DNA of 64,000 nucleotides from an uncultured Thermoproteales archaeon (GTDB taxonomy: Archaea > Thermoproteota > Thermoprotei > Thermofilales > CAYSTQ01): assembly GCA_964497915.1 (NCBI GenBank), contig CAZCFI010000001.1, positions 14,279-78,278 of the forward strand, read 5' to 3'. The notes under the pieces were generated by a model. The model ran no database searches. It was not told the DNA's origin and worked only from the letters and a program-made list of their open reading frames with translations. A program made the translations under genes and the position numbers. Shown one piece after another: positions 1,390 to 27,762 of this stretch (position 1 is the first letter of the stretch; every line of letters begins with the position of its first letter).

Positions 1390-1399
1390 TAAAGTCCTT

Positions 1400-5668: not shown

Positions 5669-5956
5669 GTGGCTAAGGCAGTGGCGTCCATGCTCATAGG
5701 CGCCTGCCACCTGGGCCTGCCGGTCTACCTAGCCACTAGGGGGCAGGCGGCGCGGCTCGAGCTAGCGCATAAGATCCTAGCGGCGGCGCTGGCCTCGGCC
5801 GCAGCATCAGCTGCCGCTGAGCTGGCGAGAGCCGACCTCCTGCTCGCGGCCTCGACGTGCTCCTACGCCCTGTCGCTGATGGGGATCAGCGCTGCCAGCG
5901 TGGGTGGCGAGGGGGCTCAGGCGCTGAGCGCAGGAACTCCCGACTTCTTTACCTAG
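5669..5956 (+). CDS. Ala-rich hypothetical ORF (weak)
   Basis: 95-aa ORF with no motif. It may belong to the decayed region upstream. Confidence 0.2.
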   Translation: MAKAVASMLIGACHLGLPVYLATRGQAARLELAHKILAAALASAAASAAAELARADLLLAASTCSYALSLMGISAASVGGEGAQALSAGTPDFFT

Positions 5957-5959
5957 CAA

Positions 5960-7171
5960 TCACAGCACCACCATCGGCACCAGCATCTCCATGTCGGTCA
6001 GGCCACCGTGCATGGCCCTCAGCCTCTCGACCTTGTCCTCGCCCTCTGGCCTCAGCCTGTAGACGAAGGCCGCGTCACGCTTGCAGGCCACCACGACGTC
6101 GCCTAAGCGCCTAGAGAACCTGCCGCCCCGCCCGAAGAGGCCCATGGACAGGGCCTCGCCCCTGCTCATGACCAGCACCTCGTCGCCCAGCGCCTCCTCG
6201 AGCGCCCTCGACAGGCCCTCGGCGTCCCAGGAGAACATGCTGAAGAGCCTGGGCTCGCCCGTCGGCGGGAGTATCAGCCTCTCGACGACCTCCTCCATCG
6301 CGTCTAGGCGGACGACCATCCCCACGTCCACCTGCCCGTGGTCTGACGTGACCACGAGCCTGCACTTGCCCCTGTCCAGCCTCTCCAGCGCGAGCTCTCT
6401 GAGCCCCCTGGCGACTAAGCGCAGCTCGGCTAGCGCCTCCTCGCTCCTCGTCCCGCAGGAGTGCTGCACGGCGTCGAGCCCCCACCAGTAGGCCACGACG
6501 AGCTTGGGGCCGCCCTGCGACAGCTCGCGCCCGAGCTTGACTAGCATGTCGGCCAGCGTGGCGTAGCCGACGGTCCTCGCGCCCTTGGACGTGAGGGCCG
6601 TGAACGAGGACTCGAGCAAGCCCTCTGGCAGGAGCTTGACGACCTCGACGCCAGCCTCACTCAGCACCTGAAACACCGTCTTGTAGGGCACCAGGGTCTC
6701 GTGAGTCACGCCGTAGTCCCTCAAGCTGTCCCTCGATGGGTTCACTATGGGCGTGAACCTGAGGACGTTGACGACGCAGCCCAGCCTCTCGAGGTAGAGG
6801 TGGTAGCCCAGCACGCCGTGCTCAATGGGGGTCATGCCGTAGAACATGGAGACCAAAGCCGTCGAGGTGGTCGACGGCGCGGTCGATGTGAGCACCGCCA
6901 CGGCCCTAGCATCCCTAAGGAGGCCCTTGGCGTACTGGAGGAGGTAGAGCCCGAGGGAGTCGATGAGCGCTAGCCCCACGCGCTCAGCGCCGTCGAGCGC
7001 TCCGTAGTCGAGCACGTCCTCGTCTATCGCCCTGAAGTCGCCCCTAACGTCAAACGCCCTCAGCAGGGTGCCCGCTAGCTCGCACACGGAGGCCCTGCCG
7101 TAGAGCGGCCTCACCAGCCTGTAGCCGCCGCCTTCCCAGAGGGCCTCGACGTGGTCGCAGGCGAGCTTCAT
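5960..7171 (-). CDS. alkaline-phosphatase superfamily protein (type I phosphodiesterase / nucleotide pyrophosphatase or PglZ-like)
   Basis: 'GLALIDSLGLY' (metal Asp plus nucleophile Ser/Thr context) and 'LVVTSDHGQVDVG' (the SDHG motif typical of the superfamily). No signal peptide. Confidence 0.65.
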   Translation of the reverse strand: MKLACDHVEALWEGGGYRLVRPLYGRASVCELAGTLLRAFDVRGDFRAIDEDVLDYGALDGAERVGLALIDSLGLYLLQYAKGLLRDARAVAVLTSTAPSTTSTALVSMFYGMTPIEHGVLGYHLYLERLGCVVNVLRFTPIVNPSRDSLRDYGVTHETLVPYKTVFQVLSEAGVEVVKLLPEGLLESSFTALTSKGARTVGYATLADMLVKLGRELSQGGPKLVVAYWWGLDAVQHSCGTRSEEALAELRLVARGLRELALERLDRGKCRLVVTSDHGQVDVGMVVRLDAMEEVVERLILPPTGEPRLFSMFSWDAEGLSRALEEALGDEVLVMSRGEALSMGLFGRGGRFSRRLGDVVVACKRDAAFVYRLRPEGEDKVERLRAMHGGLTDMEMLVPMVVL

Positions 7172-7179
7172 CCCGGCAC

Positions 7180-8493
7180 CTAGGCCCGAGCCCTCCTCAG
7201 CCTCCTCATCCTTATCGAGAACTGCATCGTCAGTATCCTCTCGGACGACAGCAGCTTAGCTGAGACCCCCACCATCGCGGCGGTGAAGGCTAGGGCCCAC
7301 GCTATCGAAGCGTACGGGATCCACCAGACTCCCTCCACCGCCGCCTTCAGCACGAGCACTGGGGATATGAAGGGGGAGGCCGCGACCAGGGCCGCCTGGC
7401 TCGCCAGCGGCAGGCTGGAGATGTCGACGAACATCAGCACCATGCCGGGCACGAACACCACGAGCGATAGCGAGCCGATGTAGGACTGGGCCGTCCTCAC
7501 GTCGGGGAACAGCGAGCCCAGCAGCAGCCCCAGGGCGCTGGTGGCCACCAGGGAGAGGAATGTCGAGAGGCCGAGCAGCACCAGGTTGTGGGTACCCACT
7601 AAGTCAGTCAGCGACTCCACGCTCACGGCAGCTGGCCTGAGCTCAGCCGCCTCCTCCTCCACGAACTTCAGGGGGGCGCTTATGTAGTACGTGAAGCCAG
7701 CCATGTAGCTGACCGTGGCGAGCATGACGAGTACGAGCACGCCGAGCAGCTTGGCGGCCAGTATCTTGTACCTGGGTATAGGCAGGGTCAGCAGCACCTC
7801 GAGCGTCCTCTCCTCGTTCTCCGAGGCTATGAGCGCGGCTGAGACCCCTATGGCGGTGGTTATCACGACCAGCGGGGCTATCATGAGCCCCGAGGTGAGG
7901 AAGCTCATTACCCCCAGCAGGGCGGATGGGACCCTGCGGCCAGCCACGTACAGAGCAGTCTCGCTCCTGACCGGGTTGAGGACGAATCCTGGCTCGGTGA
8001 CCCCAGCCTCCTTCATAAGTGCGACGCTTAGCGCCTTATTGACTGACTCAGTCACGCTTCTGGCGAGGCCGTAGACCGAGTACCCAGCCATGCTCAGGCC
8101 CCGCACGTTCATGTGGACGACTAGCGTCGCAGGCCTCAGGCTGCTCATGTTCTCACTGAAGCCCTCCGGCACCTCGATGACAAGCGTCACGTTAGTGCCA
8201 GACGCTATCAGCGAGGAGACGTCCTCCACCTCTAGCGGCTTAACGCTGTAGCCCATGGACCTGATCGTGTCTAGCACCAAGGCTGAGTAGGGGCCCCTGT
8301 CCCTGTTGACCACCGCTATCGCCTGCCCGAGCCCCTTGGCCGCCTTGATGCTAGCCTCAGCGGCGAAGCTCATCACAGCACCCATCACCACGAACACCAT
8401 CAGCGGCATGATTATTACTGAGATGAGCATCCTGAGGTCCTTGAGGGTCACCTTCAGCTCCTTCACGACTAGGTGCCTGAGCACGCCGCTCAC
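7180..8493 (-). CDS. ABC-2 type exporter permease
   Basis: 437 aa with an N-terminal TM, a large external loop and then 5 TM segments (NatB/ABC-2 layout). 4-nt overlap with the upstream ATPase gene. Confidence 0.8.
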   Translation of the reverse strand: MSGVLRHLVVKELKVTLKDLRMLISVIIMPLMVFVVMGAVMSFAAEASIKAAKGLGQAIAVVNRDRGPYSALVLDTIRSMGYSVKPLEVEDVSSLIASGTNVTLVIEVPEGFSENMSSLRPATLVVHMNVRGLSMAGYSVYGLARSVTESVNKALSVALMKEAGVTEPGFVLNPVRSETALYVAGRRVPSALLGVMSFLTSGLMIAPLVVITTAIGVSAALIASENEERTLEVLLTLPIPRYKILAAKLLGVLVLVMLATVSYMAGFTYYISAPLKFVEEEAAELRPAAVSVESLTDLVGTHNLVLLGLSTFLSLVATSALGLLLGSLFPDVRTAQSYIGSLSLVVFVPGMVLMFVDISSLPLASQAALVAASPFISPVLVLKAAVEGVWWIPYASIAWALAFTAAMVGVSAKLLSSERILTMQFSIRMRRLRRARA

Positions 8494-9209
8494 CTCCCCA
8501 CGACCTTCAGGAAGACCTCCTCGAGGTTCTCAGCGCCGTACCTCTCTATGAGCTCGCGGGGGACGCCCACCTCAACTATGCGCCCCCTGTCTATTAGGGC
8601 CACTCTGTCGCACAGGTACTCTATCTCGAGCATGTTGTGGCTGGAGAGGAGCACGGTGACGCCGTGCTCCCTCGAGTACTCCTTTATCACGTTTCTCACG
8701 TACATGGCGTGGGCCACGTCAAGGCCGCTGGTTGGCTCGTCCAGGATCGCAAGCCTCGGCCTCACCATCAGGGCTCTGGCGACCAGCAGCCTGCGCTTCA
8801 TGCCCCTGCTATACGTCCTCACCTGCTTGTATATAGCGTCGCCCAGCCCAGAGATTCTGATGCCCTCCTCCACCACGGACGGCGGCGCCCCGTAGACCCT
8901 GGCCATAAACTCCAGGTACTCACGCCCGGTCAGCAGCCTGTAGGCCCCGGCCTCCTCGGGCAGGTAGCTTATCAGCTTCCTCACCTCGTCCGCCTCACTC
9001 ACGACGTCGTGCCCGAAGACCCTAACGACGCCAGAGGTGGGCTTGATTAGCGTCGCCACTATCCTGAGGGTCGTCGTCTTGCCAGCGCCGTTGGGCCCCA
9101 CGAGGCCGAAGATCTCGCCCCTCTCGACCTCGAAGCTGACGCCGTCGAGGGCCCTGACGGGGCCGTAGAGCTTCACCAGGTCCCTGACCTCCACCGCGAG
9201 CTCAGCCAT
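8490..9209 (-). CDS. ABC transporter ATP-binding protein
   Basis: Walker A 'GLVGPNGAGKTT', signature 'YSRGMKRRLLVARAL', Walker B 'LAILDEPTSGLD'. Confidence 0.92.
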   Translation of the reverse strand: MAELAVEVRDLVKLYGPVRALDGVSFEVERGEIFGLVGPNGAGKTTTLRIVATLIKPTSGVVRVFGHDVVSEADEVRKLISYLPEEAGAYRLLTGREYLEFMARVYGAPPSVVEEGIRISGLGDAIYKQVRTYSRGMKRRLLVARALMVRPRLAILDEPTSGLDVAHAMYVRNVIKEYSREHGVTVLLSSHNMLEIEYLCDRVALIDRGRIVEVGVPRELIERYGAENLEEVFLKVVGR

Positions 9210-14951: not shown

Positions 14952-15770
14952 CTACACCCTCAGCCTCTGGACGACCGGAAGCCTGCGCTCCACCGCCTCA
15001 GCCGCCCTCACGAGGGCGTGGGCATAGACCCTGCCGAACTCCGTCAGGTAGACCGGCCTCTCCCTGCCCCTGTATGCCTTGTAGACGAAGCCCTTCCTGG
15101 CCAGGCTGTCGACTAGGCGGCTGTACCTGTTCTTCACGGCTGGCACTGACGGGTCGTCGCCGCACCACTCGATGAGGTCCCTTATGGAGCCAGCCTCCCC
15201 GCCCCTCCTGTACAGCGCCAGGAGGATCCGCTCGCACAGCTCCCTCTCGTCGTCGCTCAGCAGCTTGAGCCTGACGCTCGGGAGCTGCAGCTCCATGGGC
15301 TCCAGCCCCCTCTTGTCGTCCTTCTGCTCCAGCCACTCCTCGAACCTGGGCGAGTCGGGGGGCGGTATGAAGTCGCCCCTCTTCTCAGGGGTCGTCGCGA
15401 CGACGTACATGTGGACGCCCCTGAACATCAGAGCCAGCGTCGTGACGGCCGCCACGGCCTCAGGGGGCAGGTCGGTGACGTCGATGTAGACCTCGCGCCT
15501 CCTGATGGCGCACTCCCTGTACAGTATGGCGAACAGCTTGGAGAAGACGTTCTCGAAGGACTGGGGGTTTATCGGCACCCTCTCGGGCCTGAAGTACTCG
15601 AGCCACTTGGCGAGCTTGCTCGCGTTCCTCCTCGACGCGAAGCCGTAGCGGTCGCTCTTGCTGTCGTGCAGTATGTAGACCCTCTCGATGCCCTTGGCTG
15701 CCCTCAGCCTCTCGAACCCGTCGCGCTGCAGCGTGGGGTGGAAGGCAGTGTAGATGACAACTACGACCAT
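14952..15770 (-). CDS. putative ligand-sensing transcriptional regulator: N-terminal Rossmann-like (Csa3/CARF-like, HFX_2341-type) domain plus C-terminal winged helix
   Basis: The N-terminus alternates strands and helices ('MVVVVIYTAF', 'RVYILHD', 'VYIDVTDLPPEAVAAV', 'VHMYVVAT'). The C-terminus 'ERELCERILLALYRRGGEAGSIRDLIEW...YSRLVDSLARKGFVYKAYRGRERPVYLTEFG' is wHTH-like. Confidence 0.55.
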   Translation of the reverse strand: MVVVVIYTAFHPTLQRDGFERLRAAKGIERVYILHDSKSDRYGFASRRNASKLAKWLEYFRPERVPINPQSFENVFSKLFAILYRECAIRRREVYIDVTDLPPEAVAAVTTLALMFRGVHMYVVATTPEKRGDFIPPPDSPRFEEWLEQKDDKRGLEPMELQLPSVRLKLLSDDERELCERILLALYRRGGEAGSIRDLIEWCGDDPSVPAVKNRYSRLVDSLARKGFVYKAYRGRERPVYLTEFGRVYAHALVRAAEAVERRLPVVQRLRV

Positions 15771-15776
15771 GAACTA

Positions 15777-15804
15777 CCACGGTATCTGAGTGCTGCCACG
15801 GTAA
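15777..15804. promoter_or_regulatory. direct repeat CCACGGTA(T/A) x2 between the TATA box and the start of the regulator gene (operator-like)
   Basis: CCACGGTAT at 15777-15785 and CCACGGTAA at 15796-15804, 19 nt apart. They lie between the putative TATA (15823-15832, GATATATATC) and the start codon at 15770. Confidence 0.4.
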
Positions 15805-15857
15805 TACTCTAAGGGTTCCGGGATATATATCTTTCTAACCGTCACAATGCTCATCTA

Positions 15858-15927
15858 ATGGTATCTATTTCGCGTTACCATCCATGCCTGAGCTCGGCAT
15901 CAGTCAGTAACACAAAATAGATACCAT
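15858..15927. repeat. nested inverted repeat (13-bp outer arms, inner ATGCC/GGCAT hairpin around GAGCTC)
   Basis: ATGGTATCTATTT (15858-15870) is the exact reverse complement of AAATAGATACCAT (15915-15927). Inside the loop, CATGCCTGAGCTCGGCATC forms a second hairpin. Confidence 0.7.
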
Positions 15928-15990
15928 AACGGCTGAGCGTGAACTTACGCTGGGTGCGTTCAGGTAGGCCGCGCTCGTTACTATCATAAT

Positions 15991-16005
15991 GGATATATAA
16001 TATCC
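15991..16005 (+). promoter_or_regulatory. palindromic TATA-like element upstream of the NurA-like gene
   Basis: GGATATATAATATCC lies about 30 nt upstream of ATG 16035, which would give a leaderless or near-leaderless transcript. Confidence 0.45.
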
Positions 16006-16034
16006 GCGCGTGACTCTCACAGTGAACGGGCTTG

Positions 16035-17006
16035 ATGAGGACCATCAGCGCCATATCCAGGGCCGACGCTGAGGCACTGGTGTCCAAGCTCAGGGCGCTG
16101 TACCTCAGCGCTAGGGCGACCCCCCTCGGCCGCCCGCGGCTGAGGCTGGGCGGCACCGTGCTCGAGGGCCCCCCGATCGACCGGTGCAGGGTCAGGTACC
16201 TGGAGCCCCTGCCGAGCAGGGCCACCTTCGCCGCCGTCGACGCCTCGATAAGGGCCCTCCTAGACTTAGGCTCGTGCATCGTGGTCGCCGCCAAGGTCGC
16301 CGCCGCTGCCTGGAGGAGGGGGGCCAGGGTCTACTCGCCCGACCCGCGAGTGAGGGTCACGGCCGTCGGGGGGAGGAGGGAAGCGGGGGACTGGCTGGCT
16401 AGGGTCGAGCTCGAGGAGGCCCTGCGCCTGCTCCGCAGGCTGAGGGGGGGCGACTACCTGCTCCTAGACAGGGGGCTGGTGGCGCACCCGCGGGTGAGCG
16501 AGGCGACCAGGTCCCTAGCACTGAGGGTGGTCGGCGAGGCGCTGGAGGCTGGCGTCAGAGTCGTCGGCGTGCCGAAGAGGTGCAGCGCCAAGCTGAGCGG
16601 TGGCGCTAGCGCAGTAGGGGTCATCGCTAGGCTCGCCAGCGAGAGGTTCCCCGAGATGCCTTGGTACTACTACCCGCTGTTCAGCAGGGGCGGCCCGCTC
16701 CTCGGTGACGTAGCCGTAGCTAAGTTCAGCGAGGAGTGCGACGCCGCCTTCAGGGTCGACCTGGCCATCGGGGACGACTGCGACGTTGGCGTCGCACTCG
16801 GCGAGGTGGCCTACGTGCAGGACTCCTGCCTGCCGGGCTACCCCCACCCCCTCAAGGCCGTCCACGAGGAGGCCAGGATGAGCGAGCACGAGGTTGAGTG
16901 CCTCAGGGGGGCCGTCCTAGAGCTCCTAGAGGCCGAGGGGGTCCTCGATGAGTTGGCAGGGGGCCTGAGCCTGCTGAGCTTCAAGGAGAGGTACCTGTGG
17001 GGGTGA
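16035..17006 (+). CDS. NurA-like nuclease
   Basis: Motif series resembling the NurA catalytic residues: 'FAAVDASIRAL', 'RVELEEAL', 'YLLLDRGL', 'VVGVPKRCSAKL', 'GYPHPLKAVHEEAR'. Immediately upstream of a HerA-like ATPase. TTG at 16032 is an alternative start. Confidence 0.6.
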   Translation: MRTISAISRADAEALVSKLRALYLSARATPLGRPRLRLGGTVLEGPPIDRCRVRYLEPLPSRATFAAVDASIRALLDLGSCIVVAAKVAAAAWRRGARVYSPDPRVRVTAVGGRREAGDWLARVELEEALRLLRRLRGGDYLLLDRGLVAHPRVSEATRSLALRVVGEALEAGVRVVGVPKRCSAKLSGGASAVGVIARLASERFPEMPWYYYPLFSRGGPLLGDVAVAKFSEECDAAFRVDLAIGDDCDVGVALGEVAYVQDSCLPGYPHPLKAVHEEARMSEHEVECLRGAVLELLEAEGVLDELAGGLSLLSFKERYLWG

Positions 17007-17009
17007 GCC

Positions 17010-18650
17010 TTGGAGGTAGGCACCGTCGTCTGGGTCAAGGGCCTCAAGCTGAGGTTCAGGCTCAGGAGGGGCGCCAGGGTGAGCAGGGGGCAGCTCCTGA
17101 AGGTGCGAGTCGGCGACGTGAGGCTCGTGCTCAGGGTCGTCGACTTCGAGCCCGTGGTCCTCCTCAGCCCCTCGGAGGTCGCCAGGCTGAGCAAGAGGGT
17201 AGAGGAGGGGCGCGAGGTCGTCGTGCTCGACAGGGACGTCAGGCTCTACGACACAGCGGTGGGCGTCGTGGTCGTCGAGGTGGGCGAGGACGGAGTCCCC
17301 AGGGGGCCCAGCTGCGCCCCGCCCCTGTTCTCGGCCGTCGAGACGCTTGACGAGGGCGACCTGCGCGACCTGAATCTGGACAGCGGCGACCTGAGGATTG
17401 GGTACCTGAGGGTCGGGCACGCCGCGACGGACGCCGTGGTGAGCCTCAGGGGCGACAGGGTCATACCGCACCACGTGCTGGTGAGCGGCGTGACAGGCTC
17501 GGGGAAGAGCAACTTCGGTAAGGTGCTGGCCTACGCGGTGATGAGCGTCGAGGAGCCCAGGTACAGCTTAGTCCTCTTCGACTGCGAGAGCGAGTACTTC
17601 CTCGGGGGCTCGCCGGGCAGCCTCGGGCTGGCCCACCTGCCCCAAGCTGAGGAGAGGCTCTTCTACGTGAGCAGCTCAGTCGACGAGGCGTCTAGGGTGA
17701 GGGTTACCTTCGAGTTCGACGGGGCGACCGTCGCCAGGTCGATCCTGGCGCACCCCCTAGAGGTCGACGTCAGGAGGCTGCACCCGCTAGACTTCATCAT
17801 GACTGGGGAGTTCAGCGCCCCGCAGGAGGAGCTGCTCTGGCTGGCGTGGAGGGCCTTCGGCGACGACTGGCTGCCGACGCTCCTCGACATGCCCTCCTCG
17901 GCCCTCTACTCCAGGCTTAGGAAGATGGTCCACAGGAACACAATCAACACAGTCAAGAGGAAGCTCAGGCACATGCTCGGCGACGGCCACGTATTCAAGG
18001 AGGGCTGCGAGACCGACCTGCTGAGGGCCGTGGTCAGCGCCGTGGCCAGGGGCAAGGTGGTCCTCTTCGACATACCCCACGCCAGCGAGGGCGAGGAGAA
18101 GCTGCTGAGCGTCGCCGTCGCCAGGAGGATATTCAGGGCGTACGAGAGGCTCAAGAAGAGAGCCCCAGAGGAGTGGGAGAGGTTGCCGTACGTCCTGATA
18201 GCTGTGGAGGAGGCCCACAGGTACCTCTCGAGGGACGCCCTCACGCAGCACGGAGAGGTGCGCGAGAACATATTCTCGGTAATAAGCAAGAGGGGCAGGA
18301 AGTACAAGGTCGGCGCCATGTACATAACTCAGATGCCCGGCGACCTCATGGAGCCGGTCATAAGGCAGGCCCTCACGAAGGTCATCCTCCCGCTCCCGAC
18401 GAGGCCAGACTACCTCAAGGTCATCCAGTACAGCCCGTACCTGGAGGACGCTGAGGACGAAATAAAGACGCTGGACAGGGGCGAGGCCCTAATAGTCTCC
18501 CCAGCCTCTGGGCTTCGCTTCGCCGTGCCAGTCAAGGTATTCCTCTTCGAGGACCTAGCGAGGGCTGAGCTCGCCAGAGAGCTAAGGCTGAGGGCTAGCG
18601 CTAGGGCTGGGGCCAGGAGGAGGGTCAGGGACGAGGTCTGGGCTGTGTAG
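17010..18650 (+). CDS. HerA/FtsK-superfamily ATPase (DUF87-type, HAS-barrel N-terminus)
   Basis: Walker A 'SGVTGSGKSNFGKV' (17487-17510), Walker B 'VLIAVEEAHRYL', 'KRGRKYKVGAMYITQMP'. N-terminal barrel-like 'GTVVWVKGLKLRFRL...LLKVRVGDVRLVLRVVD'. TTG start 3 nt after the NurA-like stop. Confidence 0.85.
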   Translation: MEVGTVVWVKGLKLRFRLRRGARVSRGQLLKVRVGDVRLVLRVVDFEPVVLLSPSEVARLSKRVEEGREVVVLDRDVRLYDTAVGVVVVEVGEDGVPRGPSCAPPLFSAVETLDEGDLRDLNLDSGDLRIGYLRVGHAATDAVVSLRGDRVIPHHVLVSGVTGSGKSNFGKVLAYAVMSVEEPRYSLVLFDCESEYFLGGSPGSLGLAHLPQAEERLFYVSSSVDEASRVRVTFEFDGATVARSILAHPLEVDVRRLHPLDFIMTGEFSAPQEELLWLAWRAFGDDWLPTLLDMPSSALYSRLRKMVHRNTINTVKRKLRHMLGDGHVFKEGCETDLLRAVVSAVARGKVVLFDIPHASEGEEKLLSVAVARRIFRAYERLKKRAPEEWERLPYVLIAVEEAHRYLSRDALTQHGEVRENIFSVISKRGRKYKVGAMYITQMPGDLMEPVIRQALTKVILPLPTRPDYLKVIQYSPYLEDAEDEIKTLDRGEALIVSPASGLRFAVPVKVFLFEDLARAELARELRLRASARAGARRRVRDEVWAV

Positions 18651-18744: not shown

Positions 18745-19044
18745 TCAAGGCACCGAGGGCTCCCTGTGGTTGTATATCAAGAAGAAGCCTATGGTGCCGT
18801 TCAGCCGCCTGCCGAGGACGCGCCTGTAACGCCTCACCTCGCCCTTAGTGAGGCTGACGACGATTGTGAACTCGACTGAGTCGAGGTCTGGGCGCTCGTC
18901 GAAGATCCTCCTAACGGCCCTCTCCACGGACACCGCTCTCCGCTCGAGCTCGCTCACGACCGGGGCGACCCTTGAAAAGTCCCTAGCTGGCACGACTACC
19001 CTAACGACCCTGAGCCTCCTCTCGCCCAAGAGCCCACCGCACAC
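18745..19044 (-). CDS. hypothetical small protein
   Basis: 99-aa ORF convergent with the HerA-like gene. No recognised motif. Start uncertain (GTG 19044 or TTG 19029). Confidence 0.35.
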   Translation of the reverse strand: MCGGLLGERRLRVVRVVVPARDFSRVAPVVSELERRAVSVERAVRRIFDERPDLDSVEFTIVVSLTKGEVRRYRRVLGRRLNGTIGFFLIYNHREPSVP

Positions 19045-19192
19045 AAGTTCGCCCTAAGGCATTAAAAAGCTTAGCCGGACCCACATGTGTTCGCACCACC
19101 CCGCTCATGGCACGCCATGGCCCCTACATGACCTACGACCCCATTTAAGCTTTTTGGCAGCGCTTAAATCCTCTATGAGGAATTGTTCAAAC

Positions 19193-21250
19193 ATGGCTAC
19201 TGAGGTCAAGCCCGAGAAGGAGGTTGTGGCCAAGGGCATAACCGTCAAGTCGCTCACCGTGTCAGCCATAATATGCATCATCACCTACGCCATCTTCCTA
19301 TACAGCTTCCACCCGAGGGTGGCCGGCGTAGACTGGGCCTGGTTCACCCACTACATGGTCTACCTGGGGTGGAGGTGGTACTTCGGCTGGGAGACGCTGC
19401 TGTTCCCGCTGATCGTCATAGTGTCGCTACTTTCACTGCTCTCGAGGAAGATAGCCCTCAGCAAGCAGGAGTGGACCATCGTCTACTCGATAGCCACCAT
19501 AGTCGTCCCGAGCACCTTCTGGTGGGGCATCTGGGCCTGGTGCATGAACGGCATGCTCGGCACTGAGAGGTTCAAGCACCTCATCGAGTACATACCCAGC
19601 GCCTGGGTGCCCAAGGACTACGACATCTTGGCCGCCTACTATGAGAGCAGGAAGCCCTGGGAGTGGACCATACCGCACGCCGGAGCCTGGACGACCCCGA
19701 TAGTGATGTGGGTCCTGTTCTATGTCATAGTCAACTTGATGCTCTACGGCCTAGTGCTCATATTCGTCAGGAGGATGATCATCGTCGAGAAGCTGCCTTA
19801 CCCAGTGACGACCACCACCCTCACTGTAATAAATTACGCCACTGAGCCAGTCGGCGGCGGCGTGAGGACCCTGCTGTGGAGCAAGAAGGGGCTACTCTTC
19901 TGGATAGGGTTCCTGGTAGGCGTGTTCTTCGAGGTCTTCAGCCTCTTCCCTGGCTTAATATGGAAGAAGCCGCCCTTCACCATACCCGACGAGATACCCC
20001 TGCAGGGCAAGTACCCGCCGTTCCAGAGGTCGGTGCTGTCGCACTTCATTCACCCGTCGCACGTCGGCCTCTACTTCCTGTTCTCACTCGACATACTGTT
20101 TACCGCCGTGCTGTTCCACGTCATCTTCCTGATACTGCTGCCAGCGGTGTTCGTCTCCACCGGCGTCTTCCCGTCCAAGGCCGAGAGCGAGTGGGGCGCG
20201 ATGTGGGGCATATACTTCAGGCACCAGTGGGGCTTCGCTGGCACCTACGCCTACGCCCTCAACGCCATGACCATAGGCATCGCCCTCTACCTGCTCTGGT
20301 ACACGAGGAGCGACTGGATATCGTCCTTCAAGAGGTTCCTCAAGGGAGCTGAGGCCGAGGAGGGAGAGCCCGTCTCGCCGAGGGTCGCCTGGTCCCTGCT
20401 GCTGGGCGGCGCCGTCCTCTTCCTGATCTGGATGGCCGCCAGCGAGATTCACATCGTCGGCTCCATAGTCGCGCTGCTGTACATACTCGTCGTCTGGTTC
20501 GCCGTCCTGAGGTTCGCTGGCGAGGCCTGGAGCTGCCCGCAGCTTCCGTGGGGCTTCAGGCTGCAGCAGTACGACAGGCAGCTGGCCTACGGCCTGGCCA
20601 CCCTCCTCACCGGGAGCGGCGCCAACCCGACCGGCTACGGCCTGGCCTATGTAATATCTAACCTGACCTGCTACCAGCCGCACTCCTCCGTCGTTCCGGG
20701 CATATTCAGCTACAAGATGGCCTACGAGACCAAGACCGACTTCAAGGAGGTCTTCAAGGCCCAGATAGTCACCATAGTGCTGGCCTCCATACTGTCAGTG
20801 GTCATCGGCTGGTACACCATAGGCGTCCAGGGCCTGAGCAACTGGAGGCACGGCTGGACCACCTCGTGGGACGGCGCGCTCAACAACGGCCTAGGGGCCG
20901 CCAACGACGTGACCAGGAGGAAGGAGCCGTACCCGGTCATGTTCACCATATCAGCCCTCGTCGGCATAGTGGTGGGCGCCGTCCTGATGTTCCTGCGCAC
21001 GACGTTCCCGTGGTTCATCATCAACCCGATAGGCGTCCCGCTGCTCTCGCTGCTAAACTTCTACACCTCCTGGTCCGCCATCATCGCCTTCATAATCAAG
21101 CTGCTGGTCGTCAAGATCGGAGGGCTCAAGGCCTACGAGTACGCCGTGCCCATAGCCGTCGGATGCTTCCTGGGCTCCCTGCTAATGTGGGAGATTGGCT
21201 ACCCGATGGTGCTGTGGCTGCGCTACGGCCTCGGGTGGTTACCCATTTAG
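19193..21250 (+). CDS. polytopic membrane protein, OPT (oligopeptide transporter)-superfamily-like
   Basis: ATG at 19193, preceded by the AT island TTTAAGCTTTTT...CTTAAAT. At least 14 hydrophobic segments. Motif 'VEKLPYPVTTTTLTVINYA' resembles the OPT 'LPFPSGxAxA' signature. Paralogous to 25840..27762. Confidence 0.6.
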   Translation: MATEVKPEKEVVAKGITVKSLTVSAIICIITYAIFLYSFHPRVAGVDWAWFTHYMVYLGWRWYFGWETLLFPLIVIVSLLSLLSRKIALSKQEWTIVYSIATIVVPSTFWWGIWAWCMNGMLGTERFKHLIEYIPSAWVPKDYDILAAYYESRKPWEWTIPHAGAWTTPIVMWVLFYVIVNLMLYGLVLIFVRRMIIVEKLPYPVTTTTLTVINYATEPVGGGVRTLLWSKKGLLFWIGFLVGVFFEVFSLFPGLIWKKPPFTIPDEIPLQGKYPPFQRSVLSHFIHPSHVGLYFLFSLDILFTAVLFHVIFLILLPAVFVSTGVFPSKAESEWGAMWGIYFRHQWGFAGTYAYALNAMTIGIALYLLWYTRSDWISSFKRFLKGAEAEEGEPVSPRVAWSLLLGGAVLFLIWMAASEIHIVGSIVALLYILVVWFAVLRFAGEAWSCPQLPWGFRLQQYDRQLAYGLATLLTGSGANPTGYGLAYVISNLTCYQPHSSVVPGIFSYKMAYETKTDFKEVFKAQIVTIVLASILSVVIGWYTIGVQGLSNWRHGWTTSWDGALNNGLGAANDVTRRKEPYPVMFTISALVGIVVGAVLMFLRTTFPWFIINPIGVPLLSLLNFYTSWSAIIAFIIKLLVVKIGGLKAYEYAVPIAVGCFLGSLLMWEIGYPMVLWLRYGLGWLPI

Positions 21251-21292
21251 GGGGCAAGCGAAACTACACAAGTTTTTTATCCCCGACCCATC

Positions 21293-24200
21293 GTGAGTGT
21301 TCATAAGGGGTGGAGGCGCGTGCGAGCTAGTAGGTTGGTGGCAATACTGGTGCTAGCGTCACTCGCGATCGCCCTCCTCTCGGTTCCGACCTCTAGCTCT
21401 CCAGGTGGGGGCGCTGGCTGGGATCCTCAGTCAGTCGCGAGGGAGGCGCTCAGCCTGCTCAGTCTCGAGAACGTAGCCGCGCACGTCAAGGCCATATCCT
21501 CGCTGGGCAGCAGGTTCACCGGGTACGAAGGCTGCGAGGCGGCCGCCGAGTACATATACAACTACCTAGCCAATGAGCTTGGGCTCATGACCTGGTACTG
21601 GGAGTACAAGGTACTCGTCCCCTACGACTACAACTCGACGCTCACAATCCTCCGCCCGGTCAGGAGGACCTACAGGGTCTATGCCTTGCTCCCCAACATG
21701 GTCCAGACCTGCAGGGGGACGTACGTCGGCAGGCTGGTCTTCGTCGGCGAGGGCAACGTGAGGGACTTCGAGGGCAAGAACGTGACTGGCAGCATCGTCC
21801 TGATGAAGTACAACACCAAGTCGAACTGGATGTACGCCCTCAACTTGGGTGCTAAGGGCGTCGTGTTCATAGAGCCCCTCAGGACCGTGAGGGGCGAGGG
21901 CGACTACAAGATCCTCGAGATACCCCTGAAGTTCCCGCGCGTCCTACTCAGCTACAACGACTCTAGGGACCTACTGCAAGTGATCAAGGAGGCCGAGAGC
22001 AGGGGCGAGGAGGTGGTGGCAGAGCTCAGGGTCAACATGTTCTGGAAGGAGGTCACCGCCAAGAACGTCTTCGCGCTGATACCCGGGGCCCGCGGGTTGG
22101 AGGAGGAGAGCGACATAGTCATCTTGGCCACGTACTACGACGCCTACGGCGTGGCTCCCGCTAGGACGCCAGCCGCTGACGAGGCTTGCAGCCCAGCCGC
22201 GCTGCTGGAGCTGGCCAGGATCCTCAAGGAGATCAAGCCAGAGAGGAACGTGCTGATAGCGTTCTTCTCGGGGCAGGGCGTCGGCATGGCTGGCGCTAGG
22301 TACTTCGCTGAGGAGCTGTTCTTCCGCCACTGGGACAGACCGATGCTGTTCAACACCAGCCGGGGCGTTATCTCGATGACGGGCGACCAGGTAGCTTGCG
22401 CCTTCGTGCTGGACTTCTCAACGGACTCGCCCGCAGTAGCGCTCGTGACCATAGGGACGTTCTACGGAGGCTTCGACTGGACGAGGGCTGGGCGGGTTGA
22501 GGACATGGAGGCCTACCTCAAGAACAAGATGGGCGGGCGCTACGACCCGGCCACGAAGACCTACTTCATAGGCGGGCGGGGCTACAAGGTGTACTTCGCC
22601 CTTAGGTTCGAGCGCGAGGCCCTGCCCTCCCAGGTGAACCACCTGGGGGAGGTCTTCAACCACGTCAACATATTCGCCATGACGTTCTTCACCGCCCACG
22701 CAGCCAGGGTCTTCTGGGAGACGCCAGCCGACACGGTGGACATCGTCAACTTCAGGAACCTAAGACCTCAGGTGGAGTTCTCGACTGCCGTGCTGTCCGT
22801 CATCCTCAAGGACCCGAGGGAGAGCACCAGGAACCTGCTCAGGGGCATAATGCACGGGCACTCTAGGACCGCACCGCTCGGCTTCGCGTTCATGAGGGGC
22901 AAGGTGAGGTACTACAACTTCTCCAAGGCGTGGTACGACTACAACTGGGACAGGGTGCTCGACGAGGGCGACCTGATACTCGTGTACCTCAAGCTCTACA
23001 GGGTCAGGGTGCACAAGCACTGCTTCGTAGTCCTGGCGAACGAGACTGGCGACTTCGAGATACCCGGCGTCAAGCCGTCTGGCTGGGCGCTGGGGGCGTT
23101 TGAGTACCAGATCTTCGCGTTCGTGGTGAGCAACGAGACCGGCGACATTAAGTGGGCGCCAGACCACGGCTACTACGGCAGGAAGCTGTGGCCCTACGAG
23201 AACGTGTTCACGTTGAGGTCGGGCGAGGAGGCGTCCGGCGAGGTGCCGGTGAACGTGGTGCTCTTCAAGTGCGGGACGATAGTGCTGCACGACGCCATAG
23301 ACCCGACGACGCTCTCCACGCCGCTGGTCATGACGCTCACGCCGTATACGTTCATGGTCTACGACACCAGGAGCAACGCCGAGCTGCTGCAGTTCGGCTA
23401 CTTCATATCGACGCCGCCGAGCCCGGTCCTCACGCAGCAGATAATCGCGCTGGGCATAGGCGACCCTGCGGTGGGCTACGACGCCATGGTCTTCGTACCG
23501 CCCGACACGCCGGTCGACATAGTGTTCAGGAGCCTGGCCGAGGACGCGCCGCTCGGCATACTCAGGGGCATCACGGTGCGCGAGGGCGAGTACCTCGACG
23601 TGAAGATCACCGCCCTCAGGTTCGCAGAGGAGATGCTCAGGCTGGCTGGGGAGAAGCTCGAGGTCATGAGGAACGAGCCCACGCTGGCTGGCTCCGTCGG
23701 CAGGGCGGTGAAGTACTACGAGGAGGCCCTCAGGTGCTACGAGAGGGCCAAGGAGCTGCTGGCTCAGGGCAGGTTCTCGGAGGCCTACGCCCTGATCTAC
23801 AGGTCGTGGTACCTCGGAAGGAGGTCGTACATGATCACGCGCGAGGTATACACGAACATCGTCTACACCAACGTCATGCTGGTGCTGCTGATAATACCGA
23901 CAGCGCTCGTGCTAGAGAGGTTCTTCTTCGAGAAGATGGGGCTGCAGAGGGTGATCTGCATAATCGGCATACTTGTGGCCCTCGGCGCCCTGGCGTACGT
24001 GCTCCACCCAGGGCTGAGGCTGGCCCGGAACACTCTGATGGCCTCGCTCAGCATCTTCTCCTGCATCCTGACGCTCCCTGTGCTCGGCTTCATAGTCTCG
24101 GGTGTGGTGAGGCTAGCCAAGGAGATCAGGAGGAGGCTGATAGGCGTCCACTTCATAGACGTCTCGAGGCTGTCGATATTCTCAGCGGCCCTCTCGATGG

Positions 24201-25843
24201 GCGTCGCCAACCTCAAGAAGAGGCCCCTGAGAACCGCGCTGACGCTCACGTCCGTCGTATGCCTCATACTCTCGCTGGTGCTCTTCACGTCGTGGGTGTT
24301 CGGCGACGTCTACCTGTACAGGGAGCTGCCCCAGGAGCCCAGGTACGTCGGCCTGCTGATAGAGGCTGGCACTGAGGAGATGTCGATATCTCCGTCGCTC
24401 CTCGAGTACGCCATCGGCTACTTCAGCGGCAGGGGCACCGTCTGCCCCAGGGCCTGGCTGCAGCTCCCGACGCCAGGCGCGTGGGTCATGAACGAGACCG
24501 GGGGCATAACGTTCGCTAAGGCGATAGTGGGCGTCACCAAGGACGAGCCGCTCCTGAGGGAGCTGCTGAGGGGCGTTGAGTGGCACGGCCCGATGTTTGC
24601 TGCCGTGATAACGGAGGACATCGCCAGCGATCTGAGGGTCAGGGAGGGCGACGCCATATACGTGGCCGGCATGAGGCTCACCGTCGTGAGGGTGATTGAC
24701 GCTGAGCTCCTCAAAGCTCACCTGGTAGACCTCAGCGGGACGCTGATAACGCCAAGGGATCCCGACGCGCCGCCCGGCTCCCCGGTGAGGACCAAGGAGA
24801 GGATAATCCTAATACCGTTCGGCCTGGCCATAAGAGTCGGTGGCATCGTGACCTCGATAGCCGTCTCAGTTGACGACGTGGAGCTGGCTAAGCAGGCCGC
24901 CAAGGACTTCTCGGAGCACCTGTCGTACCTAGCCGTGTACTTCTCAGATGGCGAGAAGGCCTACCTCGCTAGGTGGGTCAGGGGCTACGAGCTGAGGGGC
25001 ATCGGCCAGATAAGCATCCCGCTGATACTGGCGATCCTCTCCCTCCTCAACGTCATGGTAGCCGCGGTCTACGAGAGGACTCGCGAGATACAGATCTACA
25101 GCGTGCTGGGGCTGTCGCCGATGCACGTGGCCGTCATGGTGTTCACCGAGGGCTTCGTCTACGCCATAATTGGCGCGACGGCTGGCTACATGATATCGCT
25201 GGCCACGGGCTACGTCCTGTCAAGCCTCATGGGAGCGGCCTACATGGTGGACTTCTCCTCGCCCTACCCAGCGCTGGCCATACTCTTCTCCATGCTGGCC
25301 GTCGTGGTCGCTGGCGTGTACCCGTCAGTTAAGGCGTCGGGCTACGTGACACCGTCGCTTGAGAGGAAGTGGCGCGTGCCGACGAAGCCCATAGGGAACA
25401 CTTGGTACATACCACTGCCCATGAGCGTCTCGGACGTGAGGGTGGCGCGCGGCGTGCTGGCCTACGTGATGGAGTACCTGACGTCGGCGATGTTGGAGGA
25501 GAAGTTTAGGGTTGACGAGAGACCGCGCCCGGTGGAGCGCGAGGTGGCTGGCAGGAGGGCCATAGGCATATCACTCAAGCTGAGGCTGCCGCCGTACGAC
25601 GCGGCCATACTTGAGGACGTGCAGATACTCGCGATGGAGACGGCTGACGGCAGGATATCGTTCGGCGTACACGCCACCCTCCTCACCGGCAAGAGGTACG
25701 TCTGGGTCTCCAGCCACAAGAACTTCGTCGACGAGGTGAGGAAGCAGCTCCTGATGTGGAAGAGCCTGAGGGAGGAGGACGCCAAGAGGTACCTGAGGCT
25801 GGGGAGGGAGCTATTCAAGGGGCTGAGCGAGGGGGGTGAGTGA
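21293..25843 (+). CDS. 1516-aa envelope protein: signal/anchor, PA plus M28-peptidase-like (degenerate active site) ectodomain, 3 TM, MacB/FtsX-type permease module and a cytoplasmic tail
   Basis: GTG start. N-terminal 'LVAILVLASLAIALLSV'. M28/PA-like 'IVILATYYDAYG...PAADEACSPAALLELARIL...LIAFFSGQGVGMAGARYF'. FtsX module 'NLKKRPLRTALTLTSVVCL' ... 'LNVMVAAVYERTREIQIYSVLGLSPMHV'. Confidence 0.8.
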   Translation: MSVHKGWRRVRASRLVAILVLASLAIALLSVPTSSSPGGGAGWDPQSVAREALSLLSLENVAAHVKAISSLGSRFTGYEGCEAAAEYIYNYLANELGLMTWYWEYKVLVPYDYNSTLTILRPVRRTYRVYALLPNMVQTCRGTYVGRLVFVGEGNVRDFEGKNVTGSIVLMKYNTKSNWMYALNLGAKGVVFIEPLRTVRGEGDYKILEIPLKFPRVLLSYNDSRDLLQVIKEAESRGEEVVAELRVNMFWKEVTAKNVFALIPGARGLEEESDIVILATYYDAYGVAPARTPAADEACSPAALLELARILKEIKPERNVLIAFFSGQGVGMAGARYFAEELFFRHWDRPMLFNTSRGVISMTGDQVACAFVLDFSTDSPAVALVTIGTFYGGFDWTRAGRVEDMEAYLKNKMGGRYDPATKTYFIGGRGYKVYFALRFEREALPSQVNHLGEVFNHVNIFAMTFFTAHAARVFWETPADTVDIVNFRNLRPQVEFSTAVLSVILKDPRESTRNLLRGIMHGHSRTAPLGFAFMRGKVRYYNFSKAWYDYNWDRVLDEGDLILVYLKLYRVRVHKHCFVVLANETGDFEIPGVKPSGWALGAFEYQIFAFVVSNETGDIKWAPDHGYYGRKLWPYENVFTLRSGEEASGEVPVNVVLFKCGTIVLHDAIDPTTLSTPLVMTLTPYTFMVYDTRSNAELLQFGYFISTPPSPVLTQQIIALGIGDPAVGYDAMVFVPPDTPVDIVFRSLAEDAPLGILRGITVREGEYLDVKITALRFAEEMLRLAGEKLEVMRNEPTLAGSVGRAVKYYEEALRCYERAKELLAQGRFSEAYALIYRSWYLGRRSYMITREVYTNIVYTNVMLVLLIIPTALVLERFFFEKMGLQRVICIIGILVALGALAYVLHPGLRLARNTLMASLSIFSCILTLPVLGFIVSGVVRLAKEIRRRLIGVHFIDVSRLSIFSAALSMGVANLKKRPLRTALTLTSVVCLILSLVLFTSWVFGDVYLYRELPQEPRYVGLLIEAGTEEMSISPSLLEYAIGYFSGRGTVCPRAWLQLPTPGAWVMNETGGITFAKAIVGVTKDEPLLRELLRGVEWHGPMFAAVITEDIASDLRVREGDAIYVAGMRLTVVRVIDAELLKAHLVDLSGTLITPRDPDAPPGSPVRTKERIILIPFGLAIRVGGIVTSIAVSVDDVELAKQAAKDFSEHLSYLAVYFSDGEKAYLARWVRGYELRGIGQISIPLILAILSLLNVMVAAVYERTREIQIYSVLGLSPMHVAVMVFTEGFVYAIIGATAGYMISLATGYVLSSLMGAAYMVDFSSPYPALAILFSMLAVVVAGVYPSVKASGYVTPSLERKWRVPTKPIGNTWYIPLPMSVSDVRVARGVLAYVMEYLTSAMLEEKFRVDERPRPVEREVAGRRAIGISLKLRLPPYDAAILEDVQILAMETADGRISFGVHATLLTGKRYVWVSSHKNFVDEVRKQLLMWKSLREEDAKRYLRLGRELFKGLSEGGE

Positions 25844-27762
25844 GCGTGGGCGAGGTCGAGTGGAGGAGCGGGCTGACGTGGAGGGTCGTCCTAGCCATAC
25901 TGTACGGCGCCGTGGTGCTGATGCCAGTGGCCATATGGGGCGAGCTGATGATAGGGACCGTCGGCAACCTGACGTGGGCCGTCGTCATCCTGTTCTACTG
26001 GCTCTCCCTGCTCTACGGCTCCCCGCTGACTAGGCAGGAGATCTTGGTCATGCTAGCAGCCGTTAGCACCGCCATCTACGCTGGCACTGGGCTCAGCTTC
26101 CACCACATGTTCTTCAGAGTCTGGTTCTCCAACAGCCCGGTGGTCAAGCTGTACCACCTCGACAAGCTACTGCCCTACTGGTGGGTCCCCGAGTGCGAGC
26201 TCATAAGGACTCAGGCCCTGAGGACGTTCCTGCACCCGTCGTGGCTGCCAGTCATATTCACATCGCTAGTGTTCTGGGGCCTCAACTTAGTTATAGGGCT
26301 GACGCTGGGCTTCTTCTACTACCACCTGTTCGCTGAGGTCGAGAAGCTCCCCTTCCCGATGGCTAGGGTGAGCGTCGAGGTCATAGTGGGCCTCGAGGAG
26401 AGGGAGCCCATGAGGATGAGGGTCTTCGTGCTCTTCGCCCTGCTCGGCTTCGTTTACTCGTTCATAGCTTACGGCATACCAGTGCTCTCCCAGGCCGCGA
26501 TAGGCTACGCCGTGACCCTGATACCCTACCCGTGGCACGACATGACCGAGACCTTCCGGGACGTGCTGCCCGGGGCCATGATAGGCATCGACACCAACCT
26601 TGGAACTTACCTCTTCGGCATGATACTGCCCTACGAGGTCGTCGTCTCGATGTTCGCTGGCTCGATAATATCCTCTGTCATAGGCAACCCCATCATCGTC
26701 TGGTACTACCCCGAGCTCATACCTGAGTGGGTCGGCTTCCCAAAGGGGCTGAAGCTCGAGGACATACTATTCTGGTCGAGACTCTACGTCTGGTACATCG
26801 TCAGCGTGGGGGTAGGCTTTGCAGTCTTCGCCGACCAGCTGATAAGGGGCAGGAAGGGGCTCAGCAGGGCCATAAAGAGCCTGGCCAGGCTCTCCAAAGA
26901 GGCTAGGAGGCTAGGGTACCTGCCGCTGCACGTGATACTCGGCGTCTACCTAGCCGCGACGGTCTCGTGGCTGCTACTCCTCGAGTTCGTCCTGATCCCG
27001 GGGTTCCCCGTGCTGCCGCTGTTCTTCCTGATAGTGGTGTGGCCCTTCGTCTTCGGCCTCATATCAGTGAGGACCTACGCTGAGACTGGGTTCCCGCTGG
27101 AGGTGCGCTTCCTCAACGAGAACGTGCTGACGGCCACGATGGAGCTCTATGGCATCCCCGTCTACAGCAGGCTCGGCATATGGCCCTGGTTCGCGCCCCT
27201 CAGCGTCGACTACGGCGGGGGCTGGGTCGGCACGCTTTACGTGTGCAGAGGGGTCGGCTGCACGTTCAGCAGCTACATAAAGGCCGTGTTCCTCGTGGCG
27301 GCGCCAGTCGCCATACTCCTCAACCTGATCTACTCGGAGTACCTCTGGAAGATGACTCCAGTCCCGTCGCCAATGTTCAGGCACGCCCAGATATACTGGC
27401 CCATCGACGCCGCCCAGAGGATATTGTGGTACACGAGGAAGCTGTACAGCATGAACCTGTCGCTGCTCGTCGGCAGCTTCGCCGCCACCCTGGCAGCGTC
27501 GACTGCACTTAGGCTCCTCCACGTCCCGTTCTCACCAGCTGGGCTCCTGTACGGCATATCGTCGCCGCTGCCGGGGCCGCTTGCGGTGTTCATAGGGGCC
27601 ACGGTGGCTAGGCTGGTGGAGAAGGTCAGCAGGGGCAGGATAAACGTCAGGAGGTACGCCTACATAATGACCGGCGGCTACGGCGTCGGCATGGCCGTCG
27701 CCATGGCCATCTCAGTGTCGCTGGCGATATTCATAAAGTCGCTGTGGCCGCTGCCGTACTAG
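25840..27762 (+). CDS. polytopic membrane protein, paralog of 19193..21250 (OPT-superfamily-like)
   Basis: GTG start overlapping the stop of the giant gene (GTGA). 'AEVEKLPFPMARVSVEVIVG' aligns with 'VEKLPYPVTTTTLTVINYA' of the first permease. About 16 hydrophobic segments. Confidence 0.6.
   Translation: MSVGEVEWRSGLTWRVVLAILYGAVVLMPVAIWGELMIGTVGNLTWAVVILFYWLSLLYGSPLTRQEILVMLAAVSTAIYAGTGLSFHHMFFRVWFSNSPVVKLYHLDKLLPYWWVPECELIRTQALRTFLHPSWLPVIFTSLVFWGLNLVIGLTLGFFYYHLFAEVEKLPFPMARVSVEVIVGLEEREPMRMRVFVLFALLGFVYSFIAYGIPVLSQAAIGYAVTLIPYPWHDMTETFRDVLPGAMIGIDTNLGTYLFGMILPYEVVVSMFAGSIISSVIGNPIIVWYYPELIPEWVGFPKGLKLEDILFWSRLYVWYIVSVGVGFAVFADQLIRGRKGLSRAIKSLARLSKEARRLGYLPLHVILGVYLAATVSWLLLLEFVLIPGFPVLPLFFLIVVWPFVFGLISVRTYAETGFPLEVRFLNENVLTATMELYGIPVYSRLGIWPWFAPLSVDYGGGWVGTLYVCRGVGCTFSSYIKAVFLVAAPVAILLNLIYSEYLWKMTPVPSPMFRHAQIYWPIDAAQRILWYTRKLYSMNLSLLVGSFAATLAASTALRLLHVPFSPAGLLYGISSPLPGPLAVFIGATVARLVEKVSRGRINVRRYAYIMTGGYGVGMAVAMAISVSLAIFIKSLWPLPY

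Follow-up and report, generated by a model that had tools for sequence, protein, structure and literature searches.

A candidate CARF-regulated, paralogous nurA-herA cassette in Thermofilales and Methanomethylicia-type archaea

Paralogues of the HerA ATPase and the NurA nuclease are common in thermophilic archaea, and to our knowledge little has been established about what those encoded apart from mre11-rad50 do. A CARF domain is usually taken as a sensor of CRISPR type III signals. In the DUF6293/HFX_2341 superfamily, we know of one studied member, HFX_2341 (Crr). The present analysis concerns a stretch of 64,000 nucleotides from an uncultured Thermoproteales archaeon (assembly GCA_964497915.1, contig CAZCFI010000001.1, positions 14,279 to 78,278), hereafter called the window, and within it a three-gene locus consisting of a nurA-like gene, a herA-like gene directly behind it, and a divergently transcribed gene for a regulator with a CARF-like domain and a winged helix. 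The original prediction, made from the sequence of this stretch, was that the locus may be a signal-regulated nuclease-translocase module for defence or dedicated DNA processing rather than the housekeeping resection machine.

Several described systems resemble this locus in part. In Sulfolobus islandicus, Csa3a, a CARF and winged-helix protein, binds two promoter sites of a stand-alone nurA-herA operon (SiRe_0094/0095) and activates the operon during CRISPR adaptation (PMC5587795). In Thermoproteales, NurA/HerA paralogues that have coevolved with type III systems are encoded in the order nurA-csm6-herA (PMC3396285; PMC6546367). Genomes with several nurA-herA pairs are on record for Pyrobaculum, including a three-pair case (PMC3396285), and for Sulfolobus (PMC5587795). 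HFX_2341/Crr of Haloferax mediterranei is a transcriptional repressor that resembles Csa3a by HHpred (PMC11434293).

In the window, all three open reading frames (ORFs) were found where the original prediction had placed them, and together they form a fixed cassette that is co-inherited. The same divergent order is seen in the window and in the homologous loci L005, L006, L008, L011, L014 (Thermofilum pendens), L016 and L018, among unrelated flanking genes. When the search was started from the regulator (homologues of 46-75% identity), a NurA-like gene with a DUF87 gene behind it was transcribed away from the regulator in 5/5 loci; when it was started from HerA, the triad was present in 3/3 loci, namely Thermofilum pendens Hrk5 (CP000505, 1383091-1400710) and two other lineages. 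Furthermore, a scan of one genome per GTDB species, in which six-frame ORFs were searched by profile, yielded 44 loci from Thermofilaceae, Infirmifilum, Thermofilales, Methanomethylicia, Culexmicrobium and Nezhaarchaeales. The regulator lies on the opposite strand, upstream of NurA-HerA, at every one of the 37 loci with enough upstream DNA (37/37), the remaining 7/44 being cut by contig ends. Pairwise-identity matrices of the three proteins are correlated (regulator-HerA, r = 0.79; regulator-NurA, 0.66; NurA-HerA, 0.86), with a Mantel p of about 5e-4 for both regulator comparisons. A distant DUF6293 homologue, P0149, was tried as another cassette and rejected, as its divergent 341-aa neighbour across 254 bp is not NurA-like; the link to nurA-herA is therefore specific to this regulator subfamily. 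The reading preferred here, to which a probability of about 0.6 is given, is that of a self-contained, CARF-regulated, paralogous nurA-herA cassette in Thermofilales and Methanomethylicia-type archaea that is autoregulated and ligand-gated. All of its parts are known and it has a close functional precedent, and the arrangement itself is apparently undescribed so far.

Structural models and profiles place the regulator in the CARF/Csa3-like fold with a winged helix, of the DUF6293 type, in agreement with the Rossmann-like domain and C-terminal winged helix first proposed for it. Its AlphaFold2 (AF2) model has a mean predicted local distance difference test score (pLDDT) of 88.7, and the helix-strand topology of the winged helix is visible. 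In a Foldseek search of the PDB with this model, the top 48 matches are all CARF proteins: Csa3 structures (2WTE, 6WXQ, 6W11) lead, the best being 2WTE with an E value of 8e-8, and are followed by the CARF and winged-helix ring nucleases Sso1393 and Sis0811 (3QYF, 7PQ2) and then by Cdn1, Cad1, Card1, Cam1 and Can2. The CARF3 models of PADLOC match the regulator at E 3.8e-6. Among 21 close homologues, 17 match DUF6293_C (PF22665) and 10 match HFX_2341_N (PF19810) at E <=0.01. Alignment by hhalign of the regulator family with proteins passing the PF19810 threshold gives a probability of 99.9% and an E value of 4.6e-35 over 252 columns, that is, full length. One relative in the family also matches Csa3_N and CARF_Card1, weakly, and the C-terminal part of the family profile matches MarR-type winged helices. 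The family is small: 23 clusters were found by a word-indexed search, and an exhaustive search gave 12 representatives at E < 1e-30. Loop residues at the C-terminal edge of the Rossmann domain are invariant; together with the CARF fold, these conserved loops suggest that the cassette is signal-regulated, and the regulator is probably ligand-gated.

The assignment of the nuclease, which could have failed in profile searches, survived them. The protein matches Pfam PF09376 over residues 65-187 with 37.2 bits (gathering score 21) and an E value of 3e-9. Columns D69, E125, D145, K181, D263, PGYP 267-270 and H277 are invariant among 12 homologues, and the motifs on which the NurA-like call was based coincide with such columns. 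Judged by these residues, the D-E-D-H pattern of the NurA active site (D69/E125/D145/H277) is intact. When the family profile is compared with Sulfolobus solfataricus NurA (2YGK), the Glu, Asp and His blocks align, with an E value of 1e-4 that is obtained through the motifs. An AF2 model built on a shallow alignment of 5 sequences served as weak support, its top Foldseek matches being the NurA structures 3TAI, 3TAZ and 2YGK. RLE77278.1, from a 'Thermoprotei archaeon' metagenome-assembled genome, has the same sequence as the window protein.

The herA-like gene begins 3 nt past the nurA stop, as reported at first, and its identification as a HerA-type ATPase with Walker A and B motifs is borne out: the protein scores 50.2 bits with the DUF87/HerA central domain (PF01935; gathering score 23.2) and aligns to S. 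solfataricus HerA (4D2I) with an E value of 1.8e-15. Walker A (TGSGKS; TGxGK), Walker B (VEEAH; EEAH) and a KRGRKY motif are invariant among 27 homologues. The HAS-barrel proposed for the N-terminus did not find a supporting hidden Markov model: no match to a HAS-barrel Pfam model was obtained at E <=1, and the alignment with 4D2I begins at residue 112, the N-terminus being conserved inside the clade. Scores with the HerA equivalog models lie far below the cutoffs. The Thermoproteota equivalog for double-strand break repair (NF040937, HerA_Thermprot) gives 62.1 bits with a cutoff of 800, the general equivalog (NF040819, helicase_HerA) 57.7 bits with a cutoff of 970, and the NCBIfam anti-phage models (NF042943/NF042944) 47-51 bits with cutoffs of 800-850; in PADLOC, anti-phage HerA gives 84 bits and 'Type III coevolved' HerA 68 bits. 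The cassette HerA thus stands outside the canonical HerA equivalogs. Within its clade, identities are 47-76%, and the bit score then drops from 398 to 51 for all other HerAs. NCBI names the T. pendens orthologue merely 'ATP-binding protein'. This orthologue, ABL78837.1 (CP000505, 1391091-1392710, at 1.391 Mb), should be located about 100 genes before Tpen_1571, as estimated from its position, and it is Tpen_1571 that one figure in the literature gives as the T. pendens HerA homologue, beside the canonical APE_0107 (PMC5448004). The HerA scores, the gap around the clade and Tpen_1571 favour a nurA-herA pair paralogous to the repair pair. Two weak HerA matches, P0118 and P0126, were considered as nearest outgroups or canonical copies and turned out to be uninformative because the genes around them (of the TRAP-transporter, LysR and MerR types) bear no relation to those of the cassette.

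Some observations weigh against the preferred reading. The window regulator itself falls below the Pfam gathering thresholds for the DUF6293 domains: it scores 19.7 bits (E 1.2e-3) with DUF6293_C, for which the gathering score is 27, and does not match HFX_2341_N. Of the classical CARF motif [DN]x[ST]xxx[RK], the regulator matches solely D-x-T; for this reason, the ligand may be something other than a cyclic oligoadenylate, or the CARF domain may serve another purpose. Finally, the AF2 model of the nuclease is of low confidence, with a mean pLDDT of 52 and about 60-85 for core residues 61-180.

The divergent genes are separated by a repeat-rich AT island, as had been described from the sequence: the GC content of the spacer (15771-16034) is 48%, compared with about 63% for the window, which looks archaeal. 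Spacer length varies unusually little: among 36 distinct sequences it is 228-308 bp, with a single one above 281 bp, and it amounts to about 260 bp in the window and 267 bp in T. pendens. The layout was deduced from alignments of 33 spacers and, separately, of 5 loci, and its elements in the window are listed in Table 1. The strict dyad GTAnC-N8-GnTAC occurs in the whole window at the two central sites O2 and O3 and at no others. In 42 distinct spacers, 42 strict dyads are found, compared with about 0.1 expected from shuffled sequences, and their positions are fixed. For example, homologous spacers have O2 at 90-98 nt from the start of the regulator gene, and the start-to-start distance between O2 and O3 is 44-48 bp (typically 45-46) in loci with both sites, with L057 (35 bp) as an exception. 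Near the regulator start, at a distance of 10-13 nt, a third dyad is present in six lineages, and a TACnGTA block is conserved in 33 spacers. At this O1 position, the dyad is relaxed in the window and L005 and strict in L022, L040, L056 and L058; L016 has a strict dyad at 2 nt from the start. O1 is the predicted autorepression site. Both TATA-like boxes are putative promoter elements; the layout, in which the central sites precede both promoters and the regulator leader holds one site more, would suit co-regulation of nurA-herA with negative autoregulation.

Table 1. Features of the cassette in the window (O, operator; BRE, transcription factor B recognition element)
Feature	Position	Strand	Basis or remark
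Regulator: CARF-like Rossmann domain and C-terminal winged helix, DUF6293/HFX_2341 (Crr) family, 272 aa	14952..15770	-	AF2, Foldseek, PADLOC, hhalign
Predicted operator O1, degenerate dyad GTATC-N8-GCCAC	15782..15799		Between regulator TATA box and start codon
TATA-like box of regulator gene, GATATATATC	15822..15831	-	ATATATA block near-invariant in 33 spacers, also in 5 loci
Half-site AACCGTCAC, consensus wACnGTaAC	15837..15845		Just upstream of regulator TATA box; conserved block
Predicted operator O2, 18-bp dyad GTATC-N8-GTTAC	15861..15878		Flanking G, T, A, C invariant
Predicted operator O3, 18-bp dyad GTAAC-N8-GATAC	15907..15924		46 bp downstream of O2
Half-site GTTACTAT	15977..15984		Abuts nurA TATA/BRE region; 'gtTA.taT' block just before TATA-like element in 33 spacers
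TATA-like box of nurA-herA operon, GGATATATAATAT	15991..16003	+	About 35-40 nt upstream of start codon; conserved T/A-rich block
NurA-family nuclease, 323 aa; start ATG 16035, alternative in-frame TTG at 16032	16035..17006	+	Pfam, motifs, Foldseek
HerA/FtsK-superfamily ATPase, 546 aa, tight non-canonical clade	17010..18650	+	DUF87, 4D2I, equivalog scores

In six Methanomethylicia/Culexmicrobium-type loci (L018, L042, L046, L047, L050 and L061), the spacer measures 352-368 bp, and in this subgroup, with spacers about 100 bp longer, the GTAnC-N8-GnTAC dyad is present in 5/6 (not in L047) at shifted positions. The regulator is about 330 aa long in L018/L019, and L042, L046, L047, L050 and L061 show similarly long stop-to-stop frames. 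Another variant concerns both protein and DNA: in the P0017 lineage of the regulator (L008/L010/L053), the putative recognition-helix motif VKNRYSR is changed to VKNKFSR, and in the spacers of the same three loci, the inner half-sites of both central dyads are changed from GTTAC to GATAT. Such paired changes of helix and half-site may represent protein-operator co-variation within a single lineage.

According to the preferred reading, the CARF and winged-helix factor would bind as a dimer to the 18-bp GTAnC-N8-GnTAC dyads in the divergent spacer of about 260 bp. Two central operators are placed upstream of both promoters, the half-sites touch each TATA/BRE region, and a further dyad is situated in the regulator leader; through these dyads and half-sites, the regulator is predicted to govern the nurA-herA operon and to act as a repressor of its own gene, with a small-molecule ligand in the conserved CARF pocket setting the switch. 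The NurA nuclease and the HerA hexameric translocase would form a complex and, by analogy with the S. solfataricus complex, thread linear double-stranded DNA and degrade it from the ends. The trigger may be DNA damage or replication stress, or invading DNA. A more specific proposal is doubtful as a whole: a CRISPR-independent CARF circuit of Thermofilales and Methanomethylicia, in which a sensor, inherited vertically and as constrained as a housekeeping gene, would read an endogenous nucleotide-type second messenger and switch on dedicated HerA-NurA processing of DNA ends, with DNA damage, replication stress or foreign linear DNA as the trigger.

Among the described systems, SiRe_0094/0095 of Sulfolobus resembles the cassette in its regulatory layout: in both, a CARF and winged-helix regulator is combined with two imperfect palindromes upstream of a nurA-herA pair that lacks mre11-rad50, binding being a prediction in the present case. 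Sulfolobus Csa3a, however, is encoded in a CRISPR adaptation locus and acts in trans on many promoters, whereas the cassette regulator belongs to the DUF6293/HFX_2341 family and stands beside its operon without exception in the genomes examined; the strict operator motif is found nowhere else in the 64 kb. No regulator of the cassette lies in or beside a CRISPR-cas locus, in the window or in the annotated homologous loci, unlike the Csa3-type regulators of such loci. With nurA-csm6-herA, the cassette shares a putatively paralogous NurA-HerA linked to a CARF gene in Thermoproteota and distinct from the recombination pair. In that system, the CARF partner Csm6, composed of a CARF and an effector domain, sits between nurA and herA beside CRISPR arrays, while the CARF protein of the cassette has a winged helix and is divergently encoded, CRISPR-cas neighbours are lacking, and nurA and herA are 3 nt apart. 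HFX_2341/Crr belongs to the same superfamily and has the same two-domain architecture (PMC11434293). It regulates globally, and no link to nurA-herA is reported for it (PMC11434293), whereas the cassette subfamily is always tied to these genes. The canonical herA-mre11-rad50-nurA operon (4D2I, 2YGK) has in common with the cassette the enzyme families, the adjacency of the genes, the catalytic motifs and a presumed HerA hexamer-NurA dimer, and differs by the presence of mre11/rad50; on the side of the cassette, HerA lies under the equivalog cutoffs, the NurA alignment with 2YGK reaches only E 1e-4, and a dedicated regulator is added. Bacterial anti-phage HerA systems (Sir2-HerA, 8WIV; DUF4297-HerA, 8XAU; PMC11291478) are similarly two-gene modules of a HerA-family ATPase and a nuclease or other effector, and their HerA structures align with the cassette HerA at E values of 1e-12 to 1e-14, comparable to canonical HerA; the effector of the cassette is NurA, not Sir2 or DUF4297, and it is not found in a defence-island context.

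Among other explanations, it is conceivable, if unlikely, that the cassette is an antiviral effector acting in trans to type III CRISPR-Cas: the regulator would sense cyclic oligoadenylate made by Cas10 and induce NurA-HerA against invader DNA or, in an abortive response, host DNA. The closest regulator structures are indeed those of Csa3, which binds cyclic tetra-adenylate (cA4), and of CARF ring nucleases; HerA scores on the PADLOC anti-phage models are at least equal to those on the repair models; and there are the precedents of nurA-csm6-herA in Thermoproteales (PMC3396285; PMC6546367) and of the stand-alone nurA-herA activated by Csa3a during CRISPR adaptation (PMC5587795). The surroundings of the locus point the other way, and the defence option of the original prediction gains no support from them. 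No CRISPR array was found in the 64-kb window and no cas domain in the ORFs scanned there, and the 8 annotated homologous loci have neither cas, CRISPR, mre11 nor rad50 at distances of up to 7-8 kb from the cassette. The genes of the window are housekeeping genes, including those for NAD synthase, acyl-CoA carboxylase, a membrane-bound hydrogenase, Hyp proteins, POR and a RIO kinase. NAD synthase, CN hydrolase and ABC2-type transporter genes are found upstream of the cassette both in the window (508-9209) and in T. pendens (1285-5234 of L014), and this residual synteny indicates a stable chromosomal position. Between the same two organisms, HerA is 55% identical, compared with 49% for the adjacent NAD synthase and 34% for the CN hydrolase. 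NurA matches no PADLOC model. HerA and the regulator have no matches in IMG/VR, and a phage database search returned only one partial, irrelevant match; association of the cassette with mobile elements or viruses was rejected on these results. Moreover, the DUF6293 relative HFX_2341 operates in haloarchaea that have no type III systems (PMC11434293). Taken together, the context favours a chromosomal, vertically inherited role in stress response over a mobile defence island.

The vertical and syntenic inheritance, the strong purifying selection and the intact catalytic residues would also suit a housekeeping HerA-NurA pair for end resection, with mre11-rad50 located elsewhere and the local regulator being incidental. 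The claim that mre11 and rad50 are missing nearby holds: no Mre11-like or Rad50-like protein is present among the 38 ORFs of at least 200 aa that were scanned for Mre11, Rad50 and Cas proteins over 508-57440, a set that stops short of the ORFs of 227-283 aa from 57427 onward. A housekeeping role is nevertheless improbable in view of the distance of the cassette HerA from both repair equivalogs (62 bits with a cutoff of 800, and 58 with 970), the reserved NCBI name of the T. pendens orthologue, the isolation of the clade with its fall from 398 to 51 bits, the appearance of Tpen_1571 as the T. pendens HerA homologue in the figure mentioned above (PMC5448004), and the fact that it is normal for Thermoproteales and Sulfolobales to have more than one nurA-herA pair in a genome. 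The regulator, whose failure to be co-conserved would have refuted the original prediction, accompanies the pair throughout. Another suggestion, confined to the spacer, is that its inverted repeat is a small structured RNA or a transcription attenuator, which is highly improbable. In the window, the repeat has 21-nt arms that are 90% complementary around a 28-nt loop, its two mismatches would pair as G-U in a minus-strand RNA, and it gives weak, hairpin-type noise in Rfam. Nevertheless, no Rfam family reaches its threshold, the element is upstream of both TATA boxes, and its two arms are each a dyad in their own right. At four loci (L021, L027, L033 and L058), the central sites are repeated in direct orientation and are unable to pair with each other, and mismatches are balanced (28 G:T and 32 A:C) without strand bias. 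An RNA stem was rejected on these points, and since direct repeats occur in several loci and the mismatches are balanced, the pattern argues for dyads that are protein-binding DNA operators instead of an RNA hairpin.

Other genes around the cassette were also inspected. A 99-aa ORF (18745-19044, minus strand) is convergent with herA and has 59% identity to the ORF that the closest relative, L005, carries in this place; it was rejected as a fourth component of the cassette, being kept only in that relative. Small ORFs at this position in L006 and L008 are unrelated to it, and one of them encodes an HTH_45 protein. Downstream of the cassette in T. pendens (12268-14791 of L014), there are a PIN-domain gene, two pairs of genes resembling HEPN/nucleotidyltransferase toxin-antitoxin systems, and a PaREP1 gene, and a PIN/MazE pair is located near the cassette of L005; the window cassette has no such neighbours. 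Farther along the window, a 1516-aa protein in which an M28 peptidase domain is fused to an FtsX-type permease at the C-terminus is encoded at 21293-25843 (plus strand), preceded by a DUF6785/DUF6784 membrane protein (19085-21250) and followed by two large ORFs of 640 and 506 aa (25840-27762 and 27806-29326), both without a Pfam match; genes of the 19085-29326 region may constitute a surface or transport cluster. A 33-nt tandem repeat (39563-39638; 2.3 copies, 77% matches) lies directly downstream of a GHL10 glycosyl-hydrolase-like gene. At 40071-54403, a cluster of the Mrp/Mbh-type membrane-bound hydrogenase or complex-I-like kind contains three Proton_antipo_M subunits, a 49-kDa/NiFe large subunit and an NADHdh subunit, together with the maturation genes for HycI, a HypE-like AIRS protein and HypD.

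The cassette described here, of the self-contained and probably ligand-gated type set out above, connects a CARF-type regulator to a putatively paralogous nurA-herA pair in a hard-wired manner, with a well-defined operator code, in at least two major lineages. Its presence in Thermofilum pendens Hrk5, which is cultured and fully sequenced, makes it a compact and testable system. Three questions are opened by it: what the ligand of a non-CRISPR CARF protein is, how divergent archaeal promoters are co-regulated, and what the job of a stand-alone NurA-HerA is. A ligand other than a cyclic oligoadenylate, or a response of the module to DNA damage, would mean that CARF signalling reaches further than is assumed. 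And if the CRISPR-independent circuit proposed above is true, CARF signalling in archaea would extend beyond the ancillary immunity of CRISPR and take in core genome maintenance.

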